DNA from: Candidatus Enterousia sp.
GTDB lineage: Bacteria > Pseudomonadota > Alphaproteobacteria > Rs-D84
Direction: 5' to 3'
Length of the DNA: 64,000 nt
Assembly (NCBI GenBank): GCA_045593065.1
Contig: JAZNVZ010000007.1
Location: forward strand, 89,724-153,723
In this document: positions 582-48,103 of the stretch, piece by piece
How the letters are laid out: every line of letters begins with the position of its first letter
How positions within the stretch are numbered: position 1 is the first letter of the stretch
Program-made: the position numbers and the translations under genes
The notes under the pieces: generated by a model
Database searches by the model: none
The model's input: only the letters and a program-made list of their open reading frames with translations
Told to the model about the DNA's origin: nothing

Positions 582-603
582 TAATTTTCTGCACAAAATT
601 ACT

Positions 604-631
604 TGACAAAAATCGCTCGCCGTGTTAAATA
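604..631 (+). promoter_or_regulatory. candidate sigma70 promoter for the large hypothetical gene
   Basis: TTGACA (604-609), 16-nt spacer, TAAATA (626-631), about 30 nt upstream of the ATG at 660. Confidence 0.3.
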
Positions 632-659
632 TACTATTAATAAAAACCCGGGTAAAAAC

Positions 660-3278
660 ATGGATATAAAAAAACTTAATTTATTTGGAAACCCTGAACC
701 AATACAACCGCTATCCGAAGCGGAACTGTTCCGACAATTAGGCATGTCCCATTCTGAACTGGAGGCAAAAATTGCCGAACAGGCAAAAACAATGCCAAAA
801 AAAACAGCCGACACCAAAAAACAATTTATAAATATTTATTTTGACCCGGATGCAAACCCCCAAGATGCGACTGATGTGTTGTTATATTTGAACGCTTATG
901 TCATAGCCCCCAGCATTATGGAAACAGAAGTAAACGGCAATGTCACCGGCAATCGATACTCGTTTATAACAACTGTACACGATGTCAACAATTTGGATTT
1001 ACCCAATTTGCCTGATAATGTTTTTAAATTATTGTTGAGTTTGGTAGCAAAAGAAGATTTACCACAAATACTGCAATACAGACGAGATGAAAATATTGTT
1101 GCAATAATCCGCGAAGTTAAACACCAAGGGAAACCACTGATGCAGTCAGCCGACTTGACAGATACGGACAACCAAATTATGTTGAAAACACAGAATTCTA
1201 TTGCCGACAGCAGAAAAGCTATTTTGTCCCAAATATCAAATGCGCATGACGGAATAAACTTTTTATATTCTTGGTTTGATGACAACTGTCGCAACATTGG
1301 CTCTATTGAACCCCACAACGAAGAAATTTATAAATGTTTTCTCCGCAAAAACATTGAACTGATTTCGTCTATCACAAACCCTGATACCCAAAACAAAGTG
1401 TTTACTGTACTGATGAAACACTTGGTATTCATGCCTAACGAATTCACATATAAATTGAAACAGTTTCAAAATGTTTTGGGTGTATTAAAAAATTCTGAAT
1501 CTTTATCTATGCCCCTGGTTTTGGATGACGGGACACACACAGATTTGTTTAAACTGGACACAACAAAAATGCACGATGTTATGCATTCAATCAATGTGTC
1601 AAAAACCAGTGAATCAATCGATTTGTCTAATTTGAATATAAACGGCGATTTGATATGTTCCAAGGCCAAAGCCGCAATCGGTATGCCAAACAAAATTAAC
1701 GGCACATTAGATTGTTCTGGGTGCAAATGCAAAATTACCAAGATTCCATTTGGCACTGTCCGCGTCCAGGCCGCCCACACATTTAACAAAATCGCAGAAT
1801 TAAACACATTAGAATTTCCATCAACTGTGCGTGAAATTTTATTGGCACGATCTGTGATAAAAAACGCAACCACAGATTCCACTGAACTGGGGCATTTTAG
1901 ATTGTTTGCTGCGAAATACCCGAACATTGAAATTTTAGATGACAGAGGCGTATTATCTGTGCGCGATGCGTTGGAACAACAACTGGAAAAAATCGAACAG
2001 AAAAAGCAACCCGAAAAAGCAAAATCTGAAAAACCTGTGGCACAACCAAAACCCCAGATTCCAGAAAAAACAGCAGACCTTTTGTCGCGCAAAGAAATCG
2101 CAGAACTGTGCAAAAACGATGCAAGATTTATCGATACAGATATCGATAGATTGATAAAACGCGCAACACCAAAGTTTTCTAAACTGATAGAAAATAGAAT
2201 GTTTAATGGCACATCTGTGGTTTGCGTGCATCGTGATAATTTGGAAACACTTTTGAATAATATGGTGCAAATACTGCAAGAAGATTTGAAACGCGTTGCC
2301 ACAGAACAACCAGAAACAAATCAAATTGTCGCAGAAAAAATAGACGAAGCAAAACCCGCACCATCAACTGTGCAAAAACCAGAACCAGTTGCAATCGAAA
2401 AATATTTTTTAAAATCTGTTTGGAAAAGTATTGAAACATACTGTGGGGACAGTTCCCAAGTATTATATTCAGTATTGGAAACAGCAAACCAGGTAAATCA
2501 ACTGTATACAAATCAAAAATCTACCGAACCTGTTTTGTACTTGAATGAAAACTATATTTTACAACCAGTACCTGGAACATATGTTAAAACCGGCAAAGCT
2601 GCTGCTCAAAGAATTGGTAATGATAATGGAACGCGTATTGTGTGGACATTGAATCCAGATGATAAAATTATGGTCGCAATCGCATTTTATGATGACCACA
2701 CACCAGGAACGCGTCAAAAACAGTCTTATGATGATGTTGCCATTCCTGCTGCTGCACGTGGCTGTTTGTTGAACGGCAAAACCAAGGTTAATGCTGCGTT
2801 GGTTAAACAAGGAAACTATTTAAATATTCGCGATTTGATGGATGAATATAAACCAACACAAAAAGCTAAACCAGAACAAGAATCTAAACCCAAAAAAAGC
2901 GCAACAAAAGCGAAAATTGCACAACAAACTGTATCGACACCATCTGTGGATACAAAACCAGAATCAAAAACCACAAAACCAAAACCAGAACCTGTGGTTG
3001 CACCAGTATCGAAACCAGTCGTAATACCAGACAGTCAAAAAATCGATTTGAGTCAAATCGATAAAATGGCTCATGACCCGATGACACCACGCAGAAATTT
3101 TGTTGATGTAAAAACTGTCAGTGCTGAAATAGATGCTTTAGTCGCAACCATAGACAGAGATATAAACAACCTGGTACATGAATTGCAAGATGCACAAAAC
3201 AATCCTCAACAACAATTAGAGATTGCACGGCTGATTATTCATCATGTAAATAAAAAAATTACTTTGCTGGGTAAATAA
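660..3278 (+). CDS. large hypothetical protein (872 aa) with Lys/Pro/Glu-rich low-complexity segments; candidate secreted effector
   Basis: Long ORF. The track start at 603 is a TTG inside the promoter; the first ATG is at 660 (MDIKKLNLFGN...). It has no signal peptide and no P-loop. KPEP/KPKP low-complexity segments are present, and there is a C-terminal coiled-coil-like tail. An internal RIVWTLNPDDKIMVAIAFYDDH segment resembles a RelE/ParE C-terminus. Confidence 0.6.
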   Translation: MDIKKLNLFGNPEPIQPLSEAELFRQLGMSHSELEAKIAEQAKTMPKKTADTKKQFINIYFDPDANPQDATDVLLYLNAYVIAPSIMETEVNGNVTGNRYSFITTVHDVNNLDLPNLPDNVFKLLLSLVAKEDLPQILQYRRDENIVAIIREVKHQGKPLMQSADLTDTDNQIMLKTQNSIADSRKAILSQISNAHDGINFLYSWFDDNCRNIGSIEPHNEEIYKCFLRKNIELISSITNPDTQNKVFTVLMKHLVFMPNEFTYKLKQFQNVLGVLKNSESLSMPLVLDDGTHTDLFKLDTTKMHDVMHSINVSKTSESIDLSNLNINGDLICSKAKAAIGMPNKINGTLDCSGCKCKITKIPFGTVRVQAAHTFNKIAELNTLEFPSTVREILLARSVIKNATTDSTELGHFRLFAAKYPNIEILDDRGVLSVRDALEQQLEKIEQKKQPEKAKSEKPVAQPKPQIPEKTADLLSRKEIAELCKNDARFIDTDIDRLIKRATPKFSKLIENRMFNGTSVVCVHRDNLETLLNNMVQILQEDLKRVATEQPETNQIVAEKIDEAKPAPSTVQKPEPVAIEKYFLKSVWKSIETYCGDSSQVLYSVLETANQVNQLYTNQKSTEPVLYLNENYILQPVPGTYVKTGKAAAQRIGNDNGTRIVWTLNPDDKIMVAIAFYDDHTPGTRQKQSYDDVAIPAAARGCLLNGKTKVNAALVKQGNYLNIRDLMDEYKPTQKAKPEQESKPKKSATKAKIAQQTVSTPSVDTKPESKTTKPKPEPVVAPVSKPVVIPDSQKIDLSQIDKMAHDPMTPRRNFVDVKTVSAEIDALVATIDRDINNLVHELQDAQNNPQQQLEIARLIIHHVNKKITLLGK

Positions 3279-10980: not shown

Positions 10981-12429
10981 CTAGAATGAATATTTTACAC
11001 CCAAATGCAAGCCAAAAGAACGCCAGGTCGCTTCTTTTAATGCGTCTGTTACGTGTTCTGTGGATGCGGGGTATCTTGTTGCAACAATATCATAATCATT
11101 GTTACCAACGGGCACCTCGGTATATTCGGTATATTCTGCCCAATAAATTTCGCCACCAATTTTTCCAACATGGAAATAATTTGTATCGGCCTTGATTGAT
11201 AAATGTAATCTGTCAGACAATTTCAAATCATATTCCATTTCCAATGAATATGCCAATGCACCGTTGTCGCCTTCGTCCAAGAAACTGGGGTTTTGTTGCC
11301 AATCTGTACGATTTGGCCATATACCTTCGGATGAATATTTCGGCATACTGATTTGACCATAGAAACGCAATTTATCGGTCAATGTCATTTGTTTTTCAAT
11401 TTCTAATCCAATATAAAATCCAGACCATGTTGTGTTATATTCATGCGTTTTCCCAGATACCAAAATTGGGCCATCACCACCAATTACAACACATTCGTCT
11501 GGGCCTACACCCCATGGCACATAAGGATTCGCCGCATCATACACATAATCAGACACGGTTAATGAATTATCAACATTTACATTTGCAACCTGAATTTGTT
11601 CGGGTGACACACAGACCTGGTAATAATTATCAACATAGTTTTCGGCCTGGTCCACAGGAATTGAATAATAAACACTCAAATCATTCGGGTCGCCAAACAC
11701 ATAATTTCCGTCTGCGGTCATTAATGGAATATAGACACCTTGGTTTGGATAATAATGATTACCCATTTCCAAATTATGTTTGAATATTTCGTATCCAATA
11801 ATTGGGGTCAATTTCCAACCAGCGATACTCCAAATATTTCGTGCACCAACACCAAAACGCATGTGATGACTTTCGCCACTTTGGTCGCCAACAGAAATTG
11901 TAAATATACCATCGTTTGGTCTGGAATCATCATACGGTCGCAAATCATAATCCATCGACAAACCCCCAGATGACATCTTGCCGTATGTATATTCGCCAAA
12001 TGCAGTTAAATCAAAATTACGCACAGTAAAATTATAACGACCACCAACCTGGAATTCGTTAAACATCATGTCGTCCCATTCCAGAACAGAATTAACACTG
12101 GTGGTAAATTCAAAATCTGCGAAACGGCGGTTATACCCACCATACACATAAAAACCGTTATTGGTCGCCGCCGGTTGTGCAATTCCGTTCGCCGTTACCA
12201 TACCCGCATAACCGGGAACACTTGTACCTTTTGGAACGCGGTAAGAGTATGTATTGGAAGAAACAACCTGTTTGTTGGTCGGCAAATAACTGGCTTGGGA
12301 CACATTTTGATAATTCGAACGCGCCACAGAACCGTAATTTTGATAATAAGGCGGCACCCCTTCGTTGCTGGCCAACGCGGGCGATACGGCGCAGATTCCC
12401 AATAAAAATGCAATACTATCCTTCCTCAT
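10981..12429 (-). CDS. outer membrane beta-barrel protein (Tyr/Gly-rich)
   Basis: Signal peptide MRKDSIAFLLGICAVSPALA. Alternating hydrophobic beta-strand pattern. C-terminus ...LGVKYSF ends in an aromatic residue. Confidence 0.55.
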   Translation of the reverse strand: MRKDSIAFLLGICAVSPALASNEGVPPYYQNYGSVARSNYQNVSQASYLPTNKQVVSSNTYSYRVPKGTSVPGYAGMVTANGIAQPAATNNGFYVYGGYNRRFADFEFTTSVNSVLEWDDMMFNEFQVGGRYNFTVRNFDLTAFGEYTYGKMSSGGLSMDYDLRPYDDSRPNDGIFTISVGDQSGESHHMRFGVGARNIWSIAGWKLTPIIGYEIFKHNLEMGNHYYPNQGVYIPLMTADGNYVFGDPNDLSVYYSIPVDQAENYVDNYYQVCVSPEQIQVANVNVDNSLTVSDYVYDAANPYVPWGVGPDECVVIGGDGPILVSGKTHEYNTTWSGFYIGLEIEKQMTLTDKLRFYGQISMPKYSSEGIWPNRTDWQQNPSFLDEGDNGALAYSLEMEYDLKLSDRLHLSIKADTNYFHVGKIGGEIYWAEYTEYTEVPVGNNDYDIVATRYPASTEHVTDALKEATWRSFGLHLGVKYSF

Positions 12430-16551: not shown

Positions 16552-16664
16552 ATAAACTGAACATGAATTTATATCAAAACAACGCGTTATTTTCGCGCTG
16601 TTTTTTTATTTGTTTTATGACCTAAAATATGATAAAATATTTATAAAAAGTAGGAGTGATATCG

Positions 16665-18980
16665 ATGAAAAGATTAGTTGTTGTTTTAAGCAGTTTGTTG
16701 GTTTTGCCCGCATTTGCAGAGGTTGCACCGTCTTTCTATGATGAAGAATTGGTGTTCGCTGATGCAGAATTCGGTGATGTTGACCCAGACATTGCAGACC
16801 AAGACCAAGAACCTGTGGCAAAACCCCAGGCCGCAAAAAAGCCCACGGTGGCAAACGCACGCAGCGCGACAAACACCCGCGCAACAACCGCGCGTACAAC
16901 AACAACCAGATCTGGGGTATCTGCACGCGTTCCAACAATACGCGCAAATACCACGACATCACGCGCAATATCTGGTCGTACATCATCTGCAACAACACCT
17001 GTACGCGCAACACCTGGGGTGTCTGCACGGCGTACGGGAACATATGGAAACACAAATGCACGCAGTGGCACCAAGGCACGTGCTGGGGTCGTTAACACAA
17101 CAACCAGATTATACAATGCAAACAATGCAACCGTGCAACAGCGCGGCAGTTCTGTTGGTGTCAGTGCCAGAAACAATACAATGCGTGCCGCGACATTAAC
17201 AACAACCACAACCGCAGACGATGTCATCGAAACAACAAATAATTTGGATACATTAAAATCTTTGACCGAATATTGCCAGACACAATACGCAACATGTATG
17301 GATAATTATTGCAATGTGTTGGACGATAACCAAGGACGTTGTTCTTGCTCTAAGAATTTATCAAATTATGAAAAGACCGAGGCCGCATTGCAATCTGCAA
17401 CCGAGGCATTACAAGATGTCGCACGCGCAATTCAATATATCGGTTTGACATCCGAACAAATTACAACACTGTTTGACGAAACCGAAGCCGAATTGACAAT
17501 GAAAAACCAAAAAGACAATTCCGCAATTCGTTCCGATTTGGACAAGGTTAAACGCATGATTGTTGATGTTAAATCTGGGACATCTACGGCATCTGTTGAC
17601 ACAGGTGGATTGAATCTGGATTTGTCTGGATTGTTAGATTTTACTATCGACAGTACCGGATTTGACCTATCTTCATTTATGACCAATACGACAAACACAA
17701 ACAGTATTTCAAATCAACGCGGCGAATCTTTGTTCAAAACCGCAACCGCGCGTTGCAAGGCATCTGTGTTGAATTCTTGCGTTGCCCAAGGGGTAGATGC
17801 CGCCATGATAACAAATTCTTATGATTTGGAAATTGACAAGTCATGTTTGGCATATGAACGCGCATTAAAAGATTCAAATACACAAATGACACAAACAGTT
17901 GCAAACGCAAAAGAAGTTTTGAAAAAAGCACGTTTGATGGTTGCACAAAATAAAAACGCATACGATTTACGCGGATGCGTCAGTGCATTGGAATCATGTA
18001 TGCAAGATGATTATGTATGCGGCAGTGATTACGAAAACTGTTTAGACCCAATCGGCCAATACATTGTAAACGGTGCCGTGGTCGTAGGTAGCATGCCAGG
18101 AAATAATACAGAAGGCGAAGACATCAGTTCAAGTTATTCCAATGATAATTTATTTAGGACATGGACTATCAATGCACAGAATCCTTGGGTTGCACAAACA
18201 AACTCCTCAAGTACTGATGCTAGTGATGATAATCCTAAATACAGCTCATTAGCAGATTATGTAGAAAGTAATGTGACTGCGGCGGCACCAAAGAAATCTT
18301 CTGACAAAATGATTAACTTTTTGCAGAACAAAATTGGTTGGCACGACAGCAAAAACAACAAAGATTATGGTATGTGTATGAGTGTATTAAATCAATGCCA
18401 AAAATACACATACGAAACCAAGGGCAATAAAACAACATACAATCCTGAAAATGATGTTATCAAGAATTTCTTGCAACGCGCATTGGTTCAAATCAAGGCA
18501 AAACAAGATGAATTATTGGCATCATACGGCGAAGATTGTATTAGCGATGTTCAAAGTTGTTTGTCCACAAACAATTACGATGAAAATTTGCCACAAAGCA
18601 CAAAAAGCCGTGCAGCAATCAATTCTTGCTATGCACAAATAAAAACATGTATGTCAATCAATGGCAATATCTATGGTTCGGTTACCCCGACCGAACTGCA
18701 AACATGGGTGACGGGCACATACAGTGCGATTGAATCAGTATCCACCCAGGCGGATTTAGATGCAGTGTGCGCTAACATCACTGACCCAGACACATGCAAT
18801 AACGCCAAAGTATATGTTGTTAGTTGCACTGGCAATACCAGTACATTAACACAAAATGTTTGTACATATAACGAGACATCTGGGTCATGTTCCAGAAAAG
18901 TTACTACTACTAATAGTATTCCGACACAATGTCCGGAGCCGACCACGGAGCCGACCACGGAGCCGACCACGGAACCGTAA
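16665..18980 (+). CDS. secreted cysteine-rich protein with Arg/Thr-rich low-complexity region and C-terminal (PEPTTE)n tail
   Basis: AGGAG RBS 8 nt upstream of the ATG at 16665 (the track start 16656 is GTG). Signal peptide MKRLVVVLSSLLVLPAFA. Residues ~60-190 are R/T/A/S-rich with three GVSAR motifs. About 30 Cys follow, and the protein ends with TEPTTEPTTEPTTEP. Confidence 0.6.
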   Translation: MKRLVVVLSSLLVLPAFAEVAPSFYDEELVFADAEFGDVDPDIADQDQEPVAKPQAAKKPTVANARSATNTRATTARTTTTRSGVSARVPTIRANTTTSRAISGRTSSATTPVRATPGVSARRTGTYGNTNARSGTKARAGVVNTTTRLYNANNATVQQRGSSVGVSARNNTMRAATLTTTTTADDVIETTNNLDTLKSLTEYCQTQYATCMDNYCNVLDDNQGRCSCSKNLSNYEKTEAALQSATEALQDVARAIQYIGLTSEQITTLFDETEAELTMKNQKDNSAIRSDLDKVKRMIVDVKSGTSTASVDTGGLNLDLSGLLDFTIDSTGFDLSSFMTNTTNTNSISNQRGESLFKTATARCKASVLNSCVAQGVDAAMITNSYDLEIDKSCLAYERALKDSNTQMTQTVANAKEVLKKARLMVAQNKNAYDLRGCVSALESCMQDDYVCGSDYENCLDPIGQYIVNGAVVVGSMPGNNTEGEDISSSYSNDNLFRTWTINAQNPWVAQTNSSSTDASDDNPKYSSLADYVESNVTAAAPKKSSDKMINFLQNKIGWHDSKNNKDYGMCMSVLNQCQKYTYETKGNKTTYNPENDVIKNFLQRALVQIKAKQDELLASYGEDCISDVQSCLSTNNYDENLPQSTKSRAAINSCYAQIKTCMSINGNIYGSVTPTELQTWVTGTYSAIESVSTQADLDAVCANITDPDTCNNAKVYVVSCTGNTSTLTQNVCTYNETSGSCSRKVTTTNSIPTQCPEPTTEPTTEPTTEP

Positions 18981-33868: not shown

Positions 33869-34567
33869 ATGGGGAGGAAACCTTTGCAAGAACGCATAGA
33901 ACCGCCAATTTTAATGTCTCGATTAATGGCTTTTGTTATGGCAACGGCGGCGGTTGTGCTGGTTGTGTTGTTGATTACATTGGATAAAATGTTTCCATTA
34001 AATCGGCCACAGATATTCTTTTTAACAACCCAGGGTATTAATGACAAAGAAATAACTTTAACACAAATGCCCGAAGATTTAGATGGATATAAACGCCAGT
34101 TTATACGGGAATATATACGATATCGAAATGAAATTATCCCAAATATTTCCATTATGCGGGCCAGATGGGCGCCTACGCCAAATGGAATTATTAAATCTCG
34201 TTCAACTGATGCAATATTTGGTAATTTTGCCGATACTGAAATGGTCGCAATCATTCGTCAGGGCGATTTAGATGAACCGTTAACGATTTCTTGCGATGTT
34301 GAATTTCCTGCAAAAAACGCTGTCGTATCCAAGGTTGGCGAACCAAACACATATGTTGCTAGTTTTGATTATGTTTGCGAATATGGCGATTTGGCACCCC
34401 AGAAATATGTTCAAAAATACCAAATAATTGTAAAATTAGAATCAACAGAAAAAACGGCTATAAAATGGGCTGAACGCATGGAAAACCCATTGGGGTTCCG
34501 TGTGAGTGGATATACAGTGGCAAATGGACAAAGCGACCCTTTGAACTGGACCCAAAACGAAGAATAA
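33869..34567 (+). CDS. virB8: VirB8-like type IV secretion protein (bitopic, NTF2-like periplasmic domain)
   Basis: Size (~225 aa), a single N-proximal TM (LMAFVMATAAVVLVVLLITL), and a C-terminal NPLGFRVSGYTV motif matching the VirB8 NPLGFQVTSYR signature. The start is ambiguous: ATG at 33869, TTG at 33884 after GGAGGA, or ATG at 33914. Confidence 0.6.
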   Translation: MGRKPLQERIEPPILMSRLMAFVMATAAVVLVVLLITLDKMFPLNRPQIFFLTTQGINDKEITLTQMPEDLDGYKRQFIREYIRYRNEIIPNISIMRARWAPTPNGIIKSRSTDAIFGNFADTEMVAIIRQGDLDEPLTISCDVEFPAKNAVVSKVGEPNTYVASFDYVCEYGDLAPQKYVQKYQIIVKLESTEKTAIKWAERMENPLGFRVSGYTVANGQSDPLNWTQNEE

Positions 34568-34589: not shown

Positions 34590-36101
34590 ATGTTAAAAGT
34601 GTTTAAATTTAGCGGTTTGATGTGCGCACTGATGTTTTCTGTGGTAAATATTGCGTTTGGCGCCCAAAAGGCATGGGAAAACCCAAATGCAAACATGACC
34701 GCGGGCAGTGTTAAACCTGGGTATGCACAGTTGGCGTGGGCCCCTGGAACCGTATTGCCATTAAAATTGCGTTCTGGGATGGTAACAATGGTGTCTTTAC
34801 CAAACGGTGAACAAATTGCTGATGCAGTTATTGGCGATACTAGCGCGTTTGACATCAATACTACCCAGGGCGATAGAATTTTATATATTACACCCGCTAG
34901 TGACAATACCGAAAACGACACAAATTTAATTGTGTTGGGACAATCTGGAAATAAATACATATTCTACTTAAAGAGCTCTGGGCTTGAAGATGATGAAATT
35001 GCATATTCCCAGGTTGATGTCGTTTTGGACAATGGCGCATCGTTGGCGGGCGCAAATATTGCATCTGGGGCCAGAACATCTGGGGGCATGAATTCAATAT
35101 TTAGAAAATCTGCATCAACCAGCAGTACCCTTGGCGTTGATGGCGAAGATTATGCCTGGATAAAATCTATGAAAATTGACCCGTCTGAATTTAGATTTGA
35201 TTTGGATATATTTGTTCCAAATCCAGACGATTATGTAATTGCGCCTGAACGCGTATGGCGCGACAAGATATTCACATATATCGATTTCGGCGATAAAGTT
35301 ATCGCGATGACACAACGCCCCGTGGTATCATTGATGGTCGAAGGTGGCGAATCCCCCGTGGGATTTCGTACAGATGGTCAAGACGGACGCTTATTAATTG
35401 TCGAGGCCGTTGGCGATATGGTTTTGCGCAGCGGTCAACGTATTGTTTGCATTAAAAAACGCGAAAAACCTTTCTTGATTGCAGATACGGCATCTGTAAT
35501 GGCATTGGCCGAGGCAAATGTAGCACAAAGTATGATGTCTGGGCAATCGTTGAACAATATTGCGTATAATGCGGATATGTCGGCGGTAAATGCATCTGTG
35601 ATGGATTACAGTGCGACACCAATGTATATGTCCAACACCCCAGATACAACAGGTACTGGTGTATATGTGCCTGCGGGTTATTCTATGACCCCAGATACGC
35701 AAATGTACGGTAATTCCGGGGCATATATGATTCCAACAAAACGCGAAACCGCCGGGTCATATTTGCCACAATCAAATATACCACTGATTACATCTAATCA
35801 ATCAGGGGTTGCAGTTGAATTAGCATCCGATACAAAAATGAAACCGTTGGATGATTATTGGTCTGAATTATTGGTGAAATTCAGTGGCGATGGTGGCAAT
35901 GGGTTGTTGACACCATATCAAAACAAGGTTTTCTTTGCCGTAGATTCCCAAGGTGTTGGGGATTTGGGCGCGACATCAACAACATCTAAATTGTATCGTT
36001 TGCGCATTGGACCAATCGCGGATGTGGATACTGCGCAAACATTGTGCGACAAACTGATGAAATTCCAGGTTTCAGGATGTCGTGTGGTTAGAATTCAGTA
36101 A
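34590..36101 (+). CDS. virB9: VirB9/CagX/TrbG-like protein with extra Ser/Thr/Met-rich region and C-terminal SPOR-like domain
   Basis: Signal peptide. Residues ~190-290 (KIFTYIDFGDKVIAMTQRPVVSLMVEGGESPVGFRTDGQDGRLLIVEAVGDMVLRSGQRIVCIKKR) match the VirB9 C-terminal (CagX-type) domain. The last ~70 aa (LYRLRIGPIADVDTAQTLCDKL...GCRVVRI) resemble a SPOR domain. Confidence 0.6.
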   Translation: MLKVFKFSGLMCALMFSVVNIAFGAQKAWENPNANMTAGSVKPGYAQLAWAPGTVLPLKLRSGMVTMVSLPNGEQIADAVIGDTSAFDINTTQGDRILYITPASDNTENDTNLIVLGQSGNKYIFYLKSSGLEDDEIAYSQVDVVLDNGASLAGANIASGARTSGGMNSIFRKSASTSSTLGVDGEDYAWIKSMKIDPSEFRFDLDIFVPNPDDYVIAPERVWRDKIFTYIDFGDKVIAMTQRPVVSLMVEGGESPVGFRTDGQDGRLLIVEAVGDMVLRSGQRIVCIKKREKPFLIADTASVMALAEANVAQSMMSGQSLNNIAYNADMSAVNASVMDYSATPMYMSNTPDTTGTGVYVPAGYSMTPDTQMYGNSGAYMIPTKRETAGSYLPQSNIPLITSNQSGVAVELASDTKMKPLDDYWSELLVKFSGDGGNGLLTPYQNKVFFAVDSQGVGDLGATSTTSKLYRLRIGPIADVDTAQTLCDKLMKFQVSGCRVVRIQ

Positions 36102-36134: not shown

Positions 36135-38582
36135 ATGGCAAACACAATAAAAGAAAAAATTAAAGAAACATTTTATGATACCCCTGTGGCAATTCGTTGG
36201 ATGCTGTTGGGTGCGGCTTTTATTGTCGTGTTGATATTAATATCACTGGTAATCAACAAACCAAAACACCAAAATAAAATCGTATCTGCTGATAAAAATG
36301 TTAATTTAATTATCAATCCAGATTCTGCTGAAATGTTGGCGATTCCTGTGGGCGGCAAAGAATCCAGGGTATTTAACATCAAATCAACTGATGCCGTTGT
36401 TATTGATTCTGTCAAAATCCAAGATTCTGTTGACGGTTTTTCTATATTAAACGCATGTCAAGGTGATGCAGGGTCGATTAATCAAAACATTGGATGTAAA
36501 ATAACCGCGGTGTTTGCACCCGCAAACGCAAACATTTCGGGGCAAGTCAAACTGATTATCACATGGCACGACAGCGAAGATTTAGGCGATTTAAACAAAC
36601 GCACAGACACAATAAATGTAAATGTGGGTGTCAAAGCCGACCCAGAACCAATTAATATACAACCGTCAAAACCGGCGGTATTACCTGAACCAGAACCGGA
36701 ACCCGAATTGGAACCGGAACCGGAATTTGAACCAGAACCCGAACCCGCACCGGTTGGAACGAAACCTGTTTTAGAAAAACCTGCGCCTGTAGAAAAATCT
36801 GCATCTGCGCGGAAACGCGTGGAAAGATGTTCCGATTTTGCTATGCCAGGATACAGTAATGCCGGCGCGCAAATTGGTTGGATAAAACCAAATGCGGGAC
36901 GTTATGAATTTCACCCTTTTTCCGACAAAGAATGCAATAAACCCACAGGAATTTACAATCCAAATACAGGTATAATTACCAGTATCGACAGCGGTAAAAA
37001 AATTGGAACAGACGCAGATCATGTGGCCAAAAATGTGGATTTGACGGTTGTACCAGCATTAACATCAAAACCAAAAACCACTGGGACAAGTGCATCGACC
37101 GGCACCCCACGCACAGTTGGAAAATCTCAAAATTTAAAAAACGAATTTGCCACAGAACCCGGAATGCACTTGATACAAAAAACAATAAAAGAAGAAACAT
37201 TAAAGGGTTCTGCAGATACGACAGAGGCGGTAATCAATTCACGCCCGTACGACAGAACATTTATATTGCGTCAATTTAAACCAATTCCTGCAACAATAGT
37301 GTCCGAGGTTCGCGCTGACCCATCTGTGTACGGATGTAATAACAAGGATGCCAATGGCAGTTGCGATGGTGGCAGTGGCATTCCTGTCCGCGCAACGGTC
37401 GACAGAAATGTTTATTCTGACAATGGACGCACAATTATCATTCCCACAGGCACATTGTTAATGGGGTATTTAACTGGGGATTTACCGGGACCATATAAAA
37501 CCATTGGTCGTATGCAAATCAAATGGTATCAATTTATTCGTCCAGATGGTGTGGAATTTAATTTTAGCAGTAATGACCAAGACCCGTATTCTGCCGATTC
37601 CCAAGGGCGCGTTGGGGTTCCCGGATATGGCAGTACGGATTATATTGAACAAATGGTTATGCCTTTGTTAACCGCGATGGTTCCTGCGGCCGTTAATATG
37701 ATTGCGCCAATCGCTGACACATTCGTTAATCAAATCGATTTAGATAACAATACTGTTGTGCAATCCGGCAAGGTGCGTTCATCAGAATTAGCCAAGAACG
37801 AGGTTATAACCGCGTGGAATCAGGTTGCACAAAAATTAATCGTTGATGCATTAGATAACACAGTGCCACCATTTTCAATCGCTGCGGGCACCCGTATTAC
37901 CGTATATTCGCCTGTGGATTTAATCGCCACATGCGACAAAACAGAAAACGCTGGCAAAAAATGTGCATTTGAAACTTATAACGCCAATCCACGCCGTCCT
38001 TGGAAAGGTTTAAAAGAGCAAGTAAAGGTGGATTGGAACGATTCATCATGGACAGGGCAAGTGCGTTCGTTTAATCTAGACCGGTTTTGTACAGGTGATG
38101 CCAGCAGCGGCAAAAGAACCGCAGATAACACCCAGGCAGCCGAAATTTCCGCCGCAGGGTATGATTACAGAACCGTATTGGCATATTGCCAATCCCAAAA
38201 TTATCAGGCAAAAAACCAGGCAAAATACGATGCGTATTATCAAAATCTGACCGCTAATGCCAAGAATACGAATAAGGTCGAAGTAAATGAAAATGATGGA
38301 AAACTTTCTGTCAAATATAACGACGAATTTAATAAAAATGTTCTGGGGTTGGAATACGAAACTGATGAAGAGGGAAATGAAACAGGTCTTATAAAGAATC
38401 CATTTGAAAAATCTTCGTCTGTGCCTGCAACAGAATCTGTGGGCAGTTTGGATTGCGATGGCACGGCACCTGATGCAAATGGATGTTGCCCTGGGGAAAC
38501 ATATACCGATATGGGCGACCAAGGATTTAACTGTTGCCCTGCGGGCGGCGGCGATTGTTTCCCACCGTTAAATGTAAATTAA
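36135..38582 (+). CDS. virB10: VirB10-like protein (815 aa) with (PE)n repeat and long Cys-rich C-terminal extension
   Basis: N-terminal cytoplasmic segment plus TM (WMLLGAAFIVVLILISLVI). Pro-rich PEPEPEPELEPEPEFEPEPEPAP. VirB10 barrel-domain motif GRTIIIPTGTLLMGYLTGDLPG. About 230 extra C-terminal residues end in DCDGTAPDANGCCPGETY...NCCPAGGGDCFPP. Confidence 0.65.
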   Translation: MANTIKEKIKETFYDTPVAIRWMLLGAAFIVVLILISLVINKPKHQNKIVSADKNVNLIINPDSAEMLAIPVGGKESRVFNIKSTDAVVIDSVKIQDSVDGFSILNACQGDAGSINQNIGCKITAVFAPANANISGQVKLIITWHDSEDLGDLNKRTDTINVNVGVKADPEPINIQPSKPAVLPEPEPEPELEPEPEFEPEPEPAPVGTKPVLEKPAPVEKSASARKRVERCSDFAMPGYSNAGAQIGWIKPNAGRYEFHPFSDKECNKPTGIYNPNTGIITSIDSGKKIGTDADHVAKNVDLTVVPALTSKPKTTGTSASTGTPRTVGKSQNLKNEFATEPGMHLIQKTIKEETLKGSADTTEAVINSRPYDRTFILRQFKPIPATIVSEVRADPSVYGCNNKDANGSCDGGSGIPVRATVDRNVYSDNGRTIIIPTGTLLMGYLTGDLPGPYKTIGRMQIKWYQFIRPDGVEFNFSSNDQDPYSADSQGRVGVPGYGSTDYIEQMVMPLLTAMVPAAVNMIAPIADTFVNQIDLDNNTVVQSGKVRSSELAKNEVITAWNQVAQKLIVDALDNTVPPFSIAAGTRITVYSPVDLIATCDKTENAGKKCAFETYNANPRRPWKGLKEQVKVDWNDSSWTGQVRSFNLDRFCTGDASSGKRTADNTQAAEISAAGYDYRTVLAYCQSQNYQAKNQAKYDAYYQNLTANAKNTNKVEVNENDGKLSVKYNDEFNKNVLGLEYETDEEGNETGLIKNPFEKSSSVPATESVGSLDCDGTAPDANGCCPGETYTDMGDQGFNCCPAGGGDCFPPLNVN

Positions 38583-38611
38583 AACGCGTGGAAAATAATA
38601 AAACCCAAAAA

Positions 38612-38640
38612 ACACACATCGAACGATGTGTGTTTTTTAT
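38612..38640 (+). terminator. rho-independent terminator after virB10-like
   Basis: ACACACATCG-AA-CGATGTGTGT hairpin followed by a T6 run. Confidence 0.6.
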
Positions 38641-38796
38641 TAAAATAAATCTATTTGTCGATTCGAATCGAATTAGGAAAATATTGCTAAAATGTCTGTT
38701 TTTCGATTCGAATTTCAACCATCGGTTGAAGTATTTGGCATATATATTTATTTTGTTATATAACAACAATGTATAAAAAACAAAAGGAGAATATCA

Positions 38797-39143
38797 TGAA
38801 CAAATTACAACAACAGACCCCCAGTAATATGGAAAAATTTCACAACGCAGAACAAATGTGGTTTTGGTTTTTATATTCTAAATCTGTACAATCCAGATTT
38901 TCAAATAATAAACCAAATGGGTCAAAACACATATGCGAACTGTTAGATGTTGAAACATTAATTACTAAATTATATTTATCAGGAAAATTAACAGCCGAAC
39001 AACTGCAAATCATGAAAAAATTCGGCGATCGGCGGCGCGCACCACACCAATACATCTGGGCAGAAAATCATGCCGCATATTTATGGGCCAGTGCCATGGA
39101 AACATTGGGCGATGCCGCACGCAAAAATGGTTGGATAGATTAA
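38797..39143 (+). CDS. hypothetical protein (115 aa)
   Basis: AAAAGGAGAAT RBS before the ATG at 38797 (the track ORF starts at 38769). No recognisable motif. Preceded by palindromic TCGATTCGAAT repeats. Confidence 0.45.
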
Positions 39144-47100: not shown

Positions 47101-47985
47101 TTATTGCATCAATCGCATGCAATGCGTGCCATTGCCATTACAGAATTTTGTAAATGCACCTATCTTGCATTGTCTTATACTGGTTGCGCCTGGCTCGCCC
47201 TGAAAGGTTGGGTCGTGTATTGCTGTTGACTCAGGCGTAGTAACAACTGTCAGCATGCCGGCGGGACACTTGGTACAACCCGCGTAAGGATCGCCATAGG
47301 TATTTCCCTTGCACACACATTCATTATTACCCCCGACAAAGGCGTAATCCCCGCACGAGCGACAGGTAACAACACCATTGGTGCCAATGGTTTTATACCT
47401 GCCACTGGGACACCCCACTGTTGCACTGGTTGCGCCAGCATTTTCACACCCGGTCCAATCATTGCCGCATGATTGACATGTAAATGTATTGTCGATTAAA
47501 CCACCATTTGCATTGGTTGTTTTATAATACCCTGATTGACATGTACAAGCATTAATATCGGTTGCACCTTGGGCACTGGTGGAATGTTCTGGACATTCGG
47601 TACATTCGCCGGCGCCGGTGTTTGCATCATACGAACTGCGGTAATAATTCATGGTGCATACCCACGGGCAATATGATAGACCAGTGGTATTATCGTCAGC
47701 AGGGTTAAAAACAGAGTTACCAGGGTGATCGGATGCGGTTTCTGCCCACGACCAAACACTATTATCATATGAACCACATTTTAGGCAGGAGCGTGAGTCG
47801 TTACCAGGGTTGTAGTAAAACGAAGCACATTGTGTACATTCTCCACCAAACATTGAACTGGATGCATTCCACTCCCACCCCGGACATACACAATCATTTT
47901 CGGGTGTGGACGACGTACACTCTGCATTTGCCATAAATGGCATAAATACCGCAATAATTAATAAAAATTTTAGTATTTTTTTCAT
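47101..47985 (-). CDS. secreted cysteine-rich repeat protein (GCC2_GCC3 / Giardia VSP-like CxxC repeats)
   Basis: Start at MKKILKFLLIIAVFMPFMANA with a GGGGAAGGGAA RBS (the track ORF starts 23 codons upstream). About 40 Cys arranged as repeated C-x2-C...G-x-Y(Y) units: GECTQCASFYY, CLKCGSYD, GECTECPEH, CTCQSGYY, TCQSCGNDW, TCRSCGDYAF, CTKCPAGM. Confidence 0.6.
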   Translation of the reverse strand: MKKILKFLLIIAVFMPFMANAECTSSTPENDCVCPGWEWNASSSMFGGECTQCASFYYNPGNDSRSCLKCGSYDNSVWSWAETASDHPGNSVFNPADDNTTGLSYCPWVCTMNYYRSSYDANTGAGECTECPEHSTSAQGATDINACTCQSGYYKTTNANGGLIDNTFTCQSCGNDWTGCENAGATSATVGCPSGRYKTIGTNGVVTCRSCGDYAFVGGNNECVCKGNTYGDPYAGCTKCPAGMLTVVTTPESTAIHDPTFQGEPGATSIRQCKIGAFTKFCNGNGTHCMRLMQ

Positions 47986-48103
47986 TTCCCTTCCCCTTTT
48001 TGACCTTGCCAAAACTTTACACCAAAAAAAAAAAACGCAAGATTTTTGTTGCAAAAAATATATTTTATGACAAAATGCAGGTATGTATATAAAGGAGCCC
48101 TAT

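Follow-up and report, generated by a model that had tools for sequence, protein, structure and literature searches.

An oversized VirB10 homologue of Candidatus Enterousia with a strain-variable C-terminal extension that ends in a conserved six-cysteine module

VirB10 gates the channel of the type IV secretion machine in which it sits and is the sole subunit of that machine spanning both membranes. A 64,000-nucleotide stretch of the genome of Candidatus Enterousia sp. (contig JAZNVZ010000007.1, positions 89,724 to 153,723; the whole stretch is called the window below) holds a gene for a VirB10-like protein of about twice the canonical length, which raises the question of what has been added to this gating subunit, where in the envelope the additions would lie and what they could do there.
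36135-38582, + strand: virB10-like gene, ATG start, uninterrupted open reading frame of 815 aa
The analysis described here shows that the gene codes for VirB10 as part of a virB8-virB9-virB10 core module, which is chromosomal and inherited vertically. Every canonical part of a VirB10 is present, namely the cytoplasmic N-terminus, the membrane helix, the proline-rich spacer, the barrel and an antenna of normal length, and to these are joined three lineage-specific additions: an immunoglobulin (Ig)-like domain, a small beta domain and a C-terminal extension of ~215 aa.

The family identity of the protein is carried by its centre. Residues 384-592 match the Pfam model TrbI (PF03743) over positions 8-182 of its 188, with a score of 56 bits where the gathering cut-off is 35. 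The same stretch scores 59 bits with the NCBIfam model NF038091 (T4SS_VirB10), under its equivalog cut-off of 220, and 44.6 bits with ComB10, far under the cut-off of that model. By these profile matches, the 815-aa protein is a divergent member of the VirB10/TrbI family and not an NCBIfam equivalog. A first-pass annotation of the window had called it VirB10-like and nearly twice as long as usual, which is upheld by the TrbI score, by the length of 815 as against 403 aa in the reference protein described next, and by extra domains at both ends; the central region on which that reading depended does align with the family profile, and the barrel-domain motif IIIPTGTLLMGYLTGDLPG that it had singled out is found at aa 434. 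Among PDB sequences, the barrel has weak matches to the VirB10 family only (CagY, which is the top match, ComB10, TrwE and the VirB10 of Xanthomonas citri), and a profile of the whole protein returned nothing from the PDB at E <= 0.01. When 72,556 plasmids were searched by tblastn, the barrel found 385 plasmid records, each below 60% identity, while neither the N-terminal additions nor the extension found any match.

The most instructive comparison is with an annotated VirB10 of 403 aa from a complete virB operon on an Ensifer plasmid. Its residues 180-379 pair with residues 373-596 of the Enterousia protein at 27% identity (E 1e-16), the alignment reaches the final barrel strand, and the Ensifer protein stops 24 residues further on. 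The ends of this alignment therefore leave a surplus of ~190 residues before the barrel and of ~195-219 residues after it. The C-terminal surplus noticed in the first-pass annotation is thus real, although it is somewhat smaller than the 230 or so residues given there.

The domain layout was taken from an AlphaFold2 model built from 63 sequences, with a mean predicted local distance difference test (pLDDT) of 64.5. From the N-terminus to the antenna, the following parts are recognised.
36135-36254, + strand: short N-terminus in the cytoplasm (aa 1-17), then one membrane helix (aa 18-40), pLDDT 82-89
36297-36638, + strand: Ig-like (ASH/PapD-like) beta-sandwich, aa 55-168, with Cys108-Cys121, pLDDT ~90
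36639-36818, + strand: Pro/Glu-rich spacer, aa 169-228, 28% Pro and 23% Asp+Glu, disordered in the model
36819-37034, + strand: beta-rich 'mid' domain, aa 229-300, with Cys232-Cys267, pLDDT ~86, conservation 0.76-0.79
37221-37928, + strand: VirB10/TrbI barrel, aa 363-598, from Pfam TrbI and the Ensifer VirB10 alignment
37635-37862, + strand: antenna within the barrel, helices aa 501-533 and 550-576 with a loop of 16 residues between them, pLDDT only 35-57

The membrane helix has its hydropathy peak at aa 15-33 and a conservation of 0.81. Between it and the spacer lie ~130 structured residues (aa 41-168); an N-terminal addition of this kind had been noticed before, with a length of about 150 residues that is too high. 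Foldseek aligns the Ig-like domain with the ASH/PapD-like domain of CEP192, with Ig domains of the central pair and with Caf1M (E 9e-6 to 1e-3), and most of the matches obtained with the full model come from this domain, for which Pfam offers a weak match to Ig_CFAP65. The Pro/Glu spacer, which contains the previously reported run PEPEPEPELEPEPEFEPEPEP at aa 184, is the counterpart of the proline-rich region of VirB10, and the two regions align weakly between the Enterousia and Ensifer proteins. At the DNA level, the run is a 6-nt tandem repeat at 36683-36753 with 11.8 copies, the only repeat reported by Tandem Repeats Finder (TRF). A 6-nt indel at 36710, one repeat unit, separates the window from the conspecific contig L027 introduced below, so the length of the spacer may vary by slippage. 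The mid domain has no Pfam match at E <= 5 and no NCBIfam match, and is followed by a second disordered linker at aa 304-349. None of the additions has a second copy within the window. In the model itself the limits are slightly narrower, with the beta-sandwich at aa 58-166, the disordered spacer at aa 170-228, the mid domain at aa 230-295 and the barrel at aa 365-598.

The antenna aligns with that of the Ensifer protein nearly without gaps and is close to it in length; its hydropathy peak falls at aa 507-525, and it is predicted to be the part that spans the outer membrane. Its loop is conserved at ~0.92 over the family and shows zero variation within species. The first-pass annotation took VirB10 C-termini to form the outer-membrane pore, which is imprecise: the pore is the two-helix antenna within the barrel domain (aa 501-576), and the extension follows only after it.

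Could such an unusual layout have arisen from a frameshift, a read-through or a chimeric assembly that fused two genes? The probability of such an artefact is practically nil. The reading frame is uninterrupted, and the layout of 772-855 aa recurs in more than 120 clusters of homologues from independent assemblies, at 46-93% identity and mostly with query coverage of 99-100% (about a dozen rows cover only 69-73%), as well as in 20 genomes. An identical copy of the window's protein is found on an NCBI record, a 177-kb contig. The barrel is on average 82% identical to that of the homologues, and even the distant ones (P0140, P0143 and P0174) share the domain layout. An exact search of Joint Genome Institute (JGI) metagenome contigs with a 28-mer from the tail linker gave no match. 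Taken together, the more than 120 homologues, the gene order in 20 genomes and the distant members of the family show the layout to be real and ancient.

The extension proper comprises aa 599-815, and an AlphaFold2 model of it alone reaches a pLDDT of 77. It consists of the following parts.
37929-38230, + strand: extension part 1, aa 599-699, with a Cys600-Cys610 loop, a GQVRSF motif, Cys652-Cys685 and the start of helix 678-712
38231-38402, + strand: hypervariable cassette, aa ~700-756, 172 nt at ~50% identity to the conspecific contig L027, with sharp edges
38445-38579, + strand: terminal module of six Cys, aa 771-815, with the pattern C-x9-CC-x14-CC-x6-C-FPP, modelled at pLDDT 91-94 and including a beta-hairpin (aa 788-802)

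A core at aa 648-687 is modelled with a pLDDT of 92-95 and runs into a long (35-residue), polar helix at 678-712, after which the model passes through a poorly defined loop to a hairpin at aa 741-753. The scaffold of the extension is invariant: two Cys pairs, the 35-residue polar helix, a beta-hairpin and the terminal six-Cys module. The earlier description of the extension as helical and Lys-rich is apt for the helix (aa 665-712) and weak for the composition, as Lys makes up 7.4% and Asn/Gln 14.7%. No part of the extension has a Pfam match at E <= 5 or an NCBIfam match, and Foldseek searches of PDB and BFVD returned nothing below E = 1. Its first two thirds are found solely behind a VirB10 barrel.

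All 16 cysteines of the protein are conserved among 120 homologues and 14 are invariant. They form local pairs in the sequence (108/121, 232/267, 401/410, 600/610 and 652/685), leaving the six of the terminal module. The cysteine cluster that had been seen at the C-terminal end is there, at aa 773-815, and its CC pairs, whose conservation had been put up for checking, belong to a set of six module cysteines without exception in the 120 homologues. The even count, the invariance and the extracytoplasmic context of these six suggest that they are probably held by three disulfides.

Within the species, the invariant scaffold carries parts that differ sharply between strains. The nearest relative of the protein, P0001 (93% identity), is 98-100% identical in all domains with two exceptions, extension part 1 at 82% and the stretch preceding the module at 58%. 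A contig of the same strain (L027) is conspecific with the window, at 98.9% DNA identity over 20.5 kb, and nearly all 100-nt windows of the region outside the cassette are 97-100% identical. The cassette holds ~80 of the 130 mismatched columns of the gene. Judged from this alignment, the cassette difference is an allelic replacement by recombination and not local mutation. P0012 and P0021 were tried as a second conspecific pair; they are only 75% identical and were uninformative.

Comparison across the 120 homologues extends this picture. Residues 703-731 fall into five discrete types with several members each and three singletons; 34 pairs of proteins with barrels at least 93% identical differ in cassette type, and 19 pairs with barrels at most 82% identical share a type with a cassette identity of at least 60%. 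Discrete alleles occur in three loops, A (~aa 600-635), B (~aa 653-675) and the cassette (~aa 700-756), and the alleles of the three loops assort independently within one cluster. In seven of ten clusters formed at 90% identity, the most variable 30-aa block falls in the extension. The PE spacer and the second linker, although unconstrained, are much less polymorphic within species; relaxed constraint by itself does not account for the pattern seen in the extension.

The terminal module, on the other hand, is not confined to VirB10. A profile of the extension, searched against 1.84 billion representative proteins, found 277 representative clusters at E <= 1e-3, and 149 representative proteins that were examined hold 162 copies of the module in three architectures. 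The consensus of the 162 copies is C-x-dG-x2-PD-x2-GCC-x-GE-x-y-t-D-m-G-x2-g-f-x-CCP-x2-ggdCFPP, without a conserved His, and 144 of 146 proteins have their last Cys 4-10 residues short of the C-terminal end. Apart from VirB10, the module occurs in proteins of 160-270 aa with a Sec signal, in one to three copies after a two-Cys helical hairpin (P0137, P0148, P0150, P0160 and others; also the gene at L024, 8001-8753). It also ends bitopic proteins of 680-850 aa (P0165, P0186, P0241 and P0179), in which a conserved cytoplasmic domain is followed by a coiled coil, a single membrane helix and, before the module, a long Pro/Glu-rich spacer. The idea that the module proteins of ~700 aa are divergent VirB10s was rejected, with no TrbI match in ten that were scanned and a different layout. 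Where the module proteins are annotated at all, they are listed as 'hypothetical protein, Alphaproteobacteria bacterium'. With regard to their genomic setting, the small module protein P0271 is encoded at the end of an operon that also holds a MacB/FtsX-type ABC (ATP-binding cassette) transporter, and a gene of the P0165/P0276 type (L021, 10001-12241) is divergent from a cluster that encodes a prepilin peptidase (Peptidase_A24) as well as proteins of 536 and 570 aa without annotation.

Among the examples scanned, neither the module nor the small module proteins have a Pfam match at E <= 5 or an NCBIfam match. A granulin or beta-defensin 4 fold was considered for the module and set aside, with Foldseek E values of 5-9 that amount to noise; over the known cystine-rich folds (granulin, knottin, defensin), the best E values are 4-9. 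By its consensus and distribution, the six-Cys module is an undescribed domain family of its own. Since its carriers are anchored in the inner membrane or exported by Sec, with no evident route across the outer membrane, the module is by default placed in the periplasm, where, by analogy with TonB, it would be expected to reach toward the outer membrane on a rigid spacer.

The first-pass annotation had contained neither the domain at aa 229-300 nor the cysteine pairs 600/610 and 652/685, the strain polymorphism and its three recombining loops, the sharing of the module with other exported proteins, or the oversized VirB9 that is encoded next to virB10. The genes of the locus are given below.
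33869-34567, + strand: virB8-like gene, 232 aa, N-terminal membrane helix, Pfam VirB8 (E 1e-6, 29.2 bits, cut-off 23.2)
34590-36101, + strand: virB9/CagX-like gene, 503 aa, Pfam CagX at aa 47-290 (80.8 bits)
38606-38639, no strand assigned: palindromic hairpin of 15 bp, flanked on either side by A/T runs, 24 nt 3' of the virB10 stop codon, from a consensus scan
38769-39143, + strand: small conserved open reading frame, 124 aa, by synteny, 57-73% identity
39168-39521, + strand: small conserved open reading frame, 117 aa, 5 Cys, by synteny, 34-55% identity

The gene order is constant in 20 species-level genomes as far as their contigs reach. On one strand lie tRNA-Trp, secE, nusG and the rpl/rpoBC cluster; on the opposite strand follow virB8, virB9, virB10 and the two small reading frames, and then housekeeping genes such as yidC. 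The virB8 gene is directly 5' of virB9 and virB10 in every related locus reaching that far, and both small reading frames, which lack a Pfam or NCBIfam match and a signal peptide, are 3' of virB10 in the related loci that extend past it. The hairpin is probably the terminator of the virB8-virB10 unit and may set it apart from the reading frames downstream. No VirB7-like lipoprotein is encoded between tRNA-Trp/secE and virB8.

The VirB9 homologue is also oversized, with 503 aa against 270 aa, and its identity across the species and the order is 64-77%. Residues 48-320 cover the full canonical VirB9 of 270 aa, and a low-complexity C-terminal extension of ~185 aa ends in a SPOR (peptidoglycan-binding) domain at aa 461-497 (22.2 bits, cut-off 21). 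On the related metagenome contig L029 (1048-2556), the virB9 homologue is called as two genes of 392 and 84 aa, possibly the result of a frameshift or a sequencing error.

What, then, could the extension of VirB10 do? The reading that we favour, and hold to be moderately probable as a whole, is that of a VirB10 with a periplasmic tail, a docking module and loops for a variable partner. After the antenna, the strand ...AGTRITVYSPVDL (aa 584-596) brings the chain back into the periplasmic barrel, and the extension therefore begins in the periplasm; it has no hydrophobic or amphipathic segment able to cross the outer membrane. The extension would thus exit the barrel on the periplasmic side, and with the usual 14-fold symmetry, 14 tails would decorate the core complex just beneath the outer membrane. 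The six-Cys module, probably with three disulfides, would dock each tail to a conserved envelope partner that other module proteins reach as well, while the polymorphic loops would face a variable, non-self partner. Candidates for the latter could be the surface of a target cell, a phage or bacteriocin that enters via the machine, or a kin or exclusion determinant, and the tail might in this way serve as a specificity or evasion module of the secretion machine. The SPOR tail of VirB9 could tie the complex to peptidoglycan, possibly in place of a VirB7 lipoprotein.

Several points weigh against this proposal. Strong polymorphism within a species is more typical of surface-exposed than of periplasmic proteins, and only one truly conspecific pair has been compared at the DNA level. 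No genes for VirB2-B6, VirB11 or VirD4 were seen in the 64-kb window or up to 10 kb away in 20 related loci, so that a complete machine is only assumed. The disulfides are likewise assumed, yet the lineage is reported to be without respiratory chains. The barrel is modelled with low confidence as a monomer (pLDDT 35-73), and where the extension lies with respect to the outer membrane is deduced from canonical structures in the literature.

The polymorphism is also what gives weight to a tail that is displayed on the surface, as an adhesin or a host-contact head comparable in function to CagY's variable region. Within species, no other part of the protein is as polymorphic as the extension, and its discrete, recombining alleles follow a pattern characteristic of exposed proteins; small disulfide-rich modules are a usual feature of extracellular proteins, and the lineage probably needs contact with other cells. 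However, the course of the chain, which is back in the periplasmic barrel after the antenna, the lack of an outer-membrane-crossing segment (helix 678-712 is polar) and the presence of the module on inner-membrane-anchored or Sec-exported proteins with no visible outer-membrane route all speak for a periplasmic tail, and the antenna loop, the tip exposed outside the cell in canonical systems, does not vary within species and is ~92% conserved over the family. Surface display is considered unlikely, though the polymorphism keeps it in play. It is doubtful, too, that the extension is a polymorphic recognition head, diversified by cassettes and exposed to target cells or foreign partners, in which the module would be a new type of C-terminal tag for docking, bringing a set of Sec-exported and membrane-anchored proteins together at one site of the envelope, possibly the secretion machine. 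If it were so, it would point to a periplasm-first, pertussis-toxin-like delivery or to a lineage-specific contact organelle in obligate gut symbionts.

Other explanations concern the purpose of the whole complex or the chemistry of its cysteines. Just three vir genes are clustered here, with no gene for an ATPase or a coupling protein nearby in 20 genomes, and virB8-virB9-virB10 could be a ComB-like DNA uptake system that works with ComEC, or an envelope scaffold repurposed after genome reduction. A ComEC gene lies in the same window (55010-56998), the ComB10 score of 44.6 bits is not far under the 59 bits of VirB10, and the lineage is unable to make nucleotides (PMC12306168). Against this, both NCBIfam scores are so far under their cut-offs that they do not discriminate, scattered vir genes are usual in reduced alphaproteobacterial genomes such as those of Rickettsiales (PMC12407924), and a barrel with a mean identity of 82% points to a working pore, which makes DNA uptake or repurposing quite unlikely. 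Very unlikely, in our view, is a CC-CC cluster that binds metal (Zn, Fe or Cu) in a redox or metal-sensing tail. Paired cysteines and conserved Asp, Glu and Gly would fit metal sites, and in an anaerobe without respiratory chains the capacity for oxidative folding is uncertain; but the six Cys are even in number, a Sec signal or a membrane helix invariably precedes the module, which is hence extracytoplasmic, the other ten Cys form pairs that are local in the sequence, the compact hairpin is modelled at a pLDDT above 90 without a ligand, and no His is conserved in the module.

How does this protein compare with known members of its family? Canonical VirB10/TrbI proteins (VirB10 of A. tumefaciens, TraF of pKM101, TrwE of R388 and the Ensifer protein) have the same helix, proline-rich spacer, barrel and antenna length, and the same virB8-virB9-virB10 order. 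However, they are half as long and lack the Ig-like domain, the mid domain and the ~215-aa tail; moreover, the Enterousia locus has no virB11 or virD4 downstream. CagY of Helicobacter pylori is likewise a VirB10 homologue of unusual size, one region of which varies through recombination. Its extra mass and its variable repeats, however, precede the VirB10 domain on the N-terminal side, and variation arises by in-frame rearrangement of repeats, so that the analogy drawn in the first-pass annotation is a loose one: the variable part here is C-terminal and is exchanged as discrete cassettes, the N-terminal additions are globular, and TRF finds only the short PE run and no N-terminal repeat region of the CagY type. 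The insertion of DotG is an N-terminal pentapeptide-repeat region; this Legionella protein is likewise a large VirB10 homologue with a lineage-specific insertion, and no pentapeptide repeats occur in the protein described here.

Closer in genomic setting are the RvhB10 proteins of Rickettsiales (Wolbachia, Rickettsia, Orientia), with an antenna of ~127 residues as against ~57 and helix bundles in the loop, in an order in which VirB7 is doubtful or absent (PMC12407924). They share with the Enterousia gene a chromosomal, vertically inherited locus in a reduced alphaproteobacterial genome, scattered vir genes and a lineage-specific elaboration of VirB10. The additions described here, however, lie outside the barrel, and the antenna, with its 16-residue loop, is not of the extended kind. 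The bitopic module proteins have the layout of TonB, that is, one helix, a proline-rich spacer and a small C-terminal domain, and VirB10 itself has classically been likened to TonB; yet the module is unrelated to the C-terminal domain of TonB in sequence or fold, and we know of no TonB-box partner. Granulins and defensins are small disulfide-rich hairpins, which the module resembles in its ~45 residues, its six Cys including two CC doublets and its predicted beta-hairpin, but there is no sequence relation and no significant match in fold.

The setting of these proteins is a lineage with small genomes. The virB10 gene was found in 20 species-level genomes of Ca. Enterousia and the order Rs-D84, from sources that include the gut of sheep, goat and deer. 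Ca. Enterousia, placed by GTDB in the order Rs-D84, has genomes of ~0.75-1.0 Mb without biosynthetic routes to amino acids, nucleotides or lipids and without respiration, and an obligate symbiont or parasite lifestyle has been proposed for it (PMC12306168). That study makes no mention of secretion systems, and within the literature library that was searched, no work connected Rs-D84 with type IV secretion or described a VirB10 with a Cys-rich C-terminal extension.

Other genes of the window also merit a brief mention. Two further secreted Cys-rich proteins are encoded at 16656-18980 (774 aa, 24 Cys, with a TEP-repeat tail) and at 47101-48054 (317 aa, 28 Cys, with a weak Ephrin_rec_like match), and the lineage seems to use many cysteine-rich envelope proteins despite the reported absence of respiratory chains. 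The ComEC gene at 55010-56998 encodes a competence channel and would be relevant if the VirB proteins serve DNA uptake. A homologue of the Protochlamydia-type outer-membrane protein (Pom) is encoded at 10981-12429, and a reading frame at 603-3278 (891 aa, TTG start) has no membrane segment and no Pfam or NCBIfam match.

To our knowledge, the elaborations of VirB10 described so far lie either before the barrel, as in CagY and DotG, or inside the antenna, as in Rickettsiales. With its structured domain behind the barrel, variable between strains, the protein described here adds a third way to elaborate VirB10, found in a widespread, uncultured gut lineage with genomes of less than 1 Mb. The six-Cys module defines a new domain family of 277 clusters at E <= 1e-3 for which, among the examples scanned, neither Pfam nor NCBIfam holds a model. 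The variable loops, finally, offer a marker for strain typing and a candidate surface for partner recognition.

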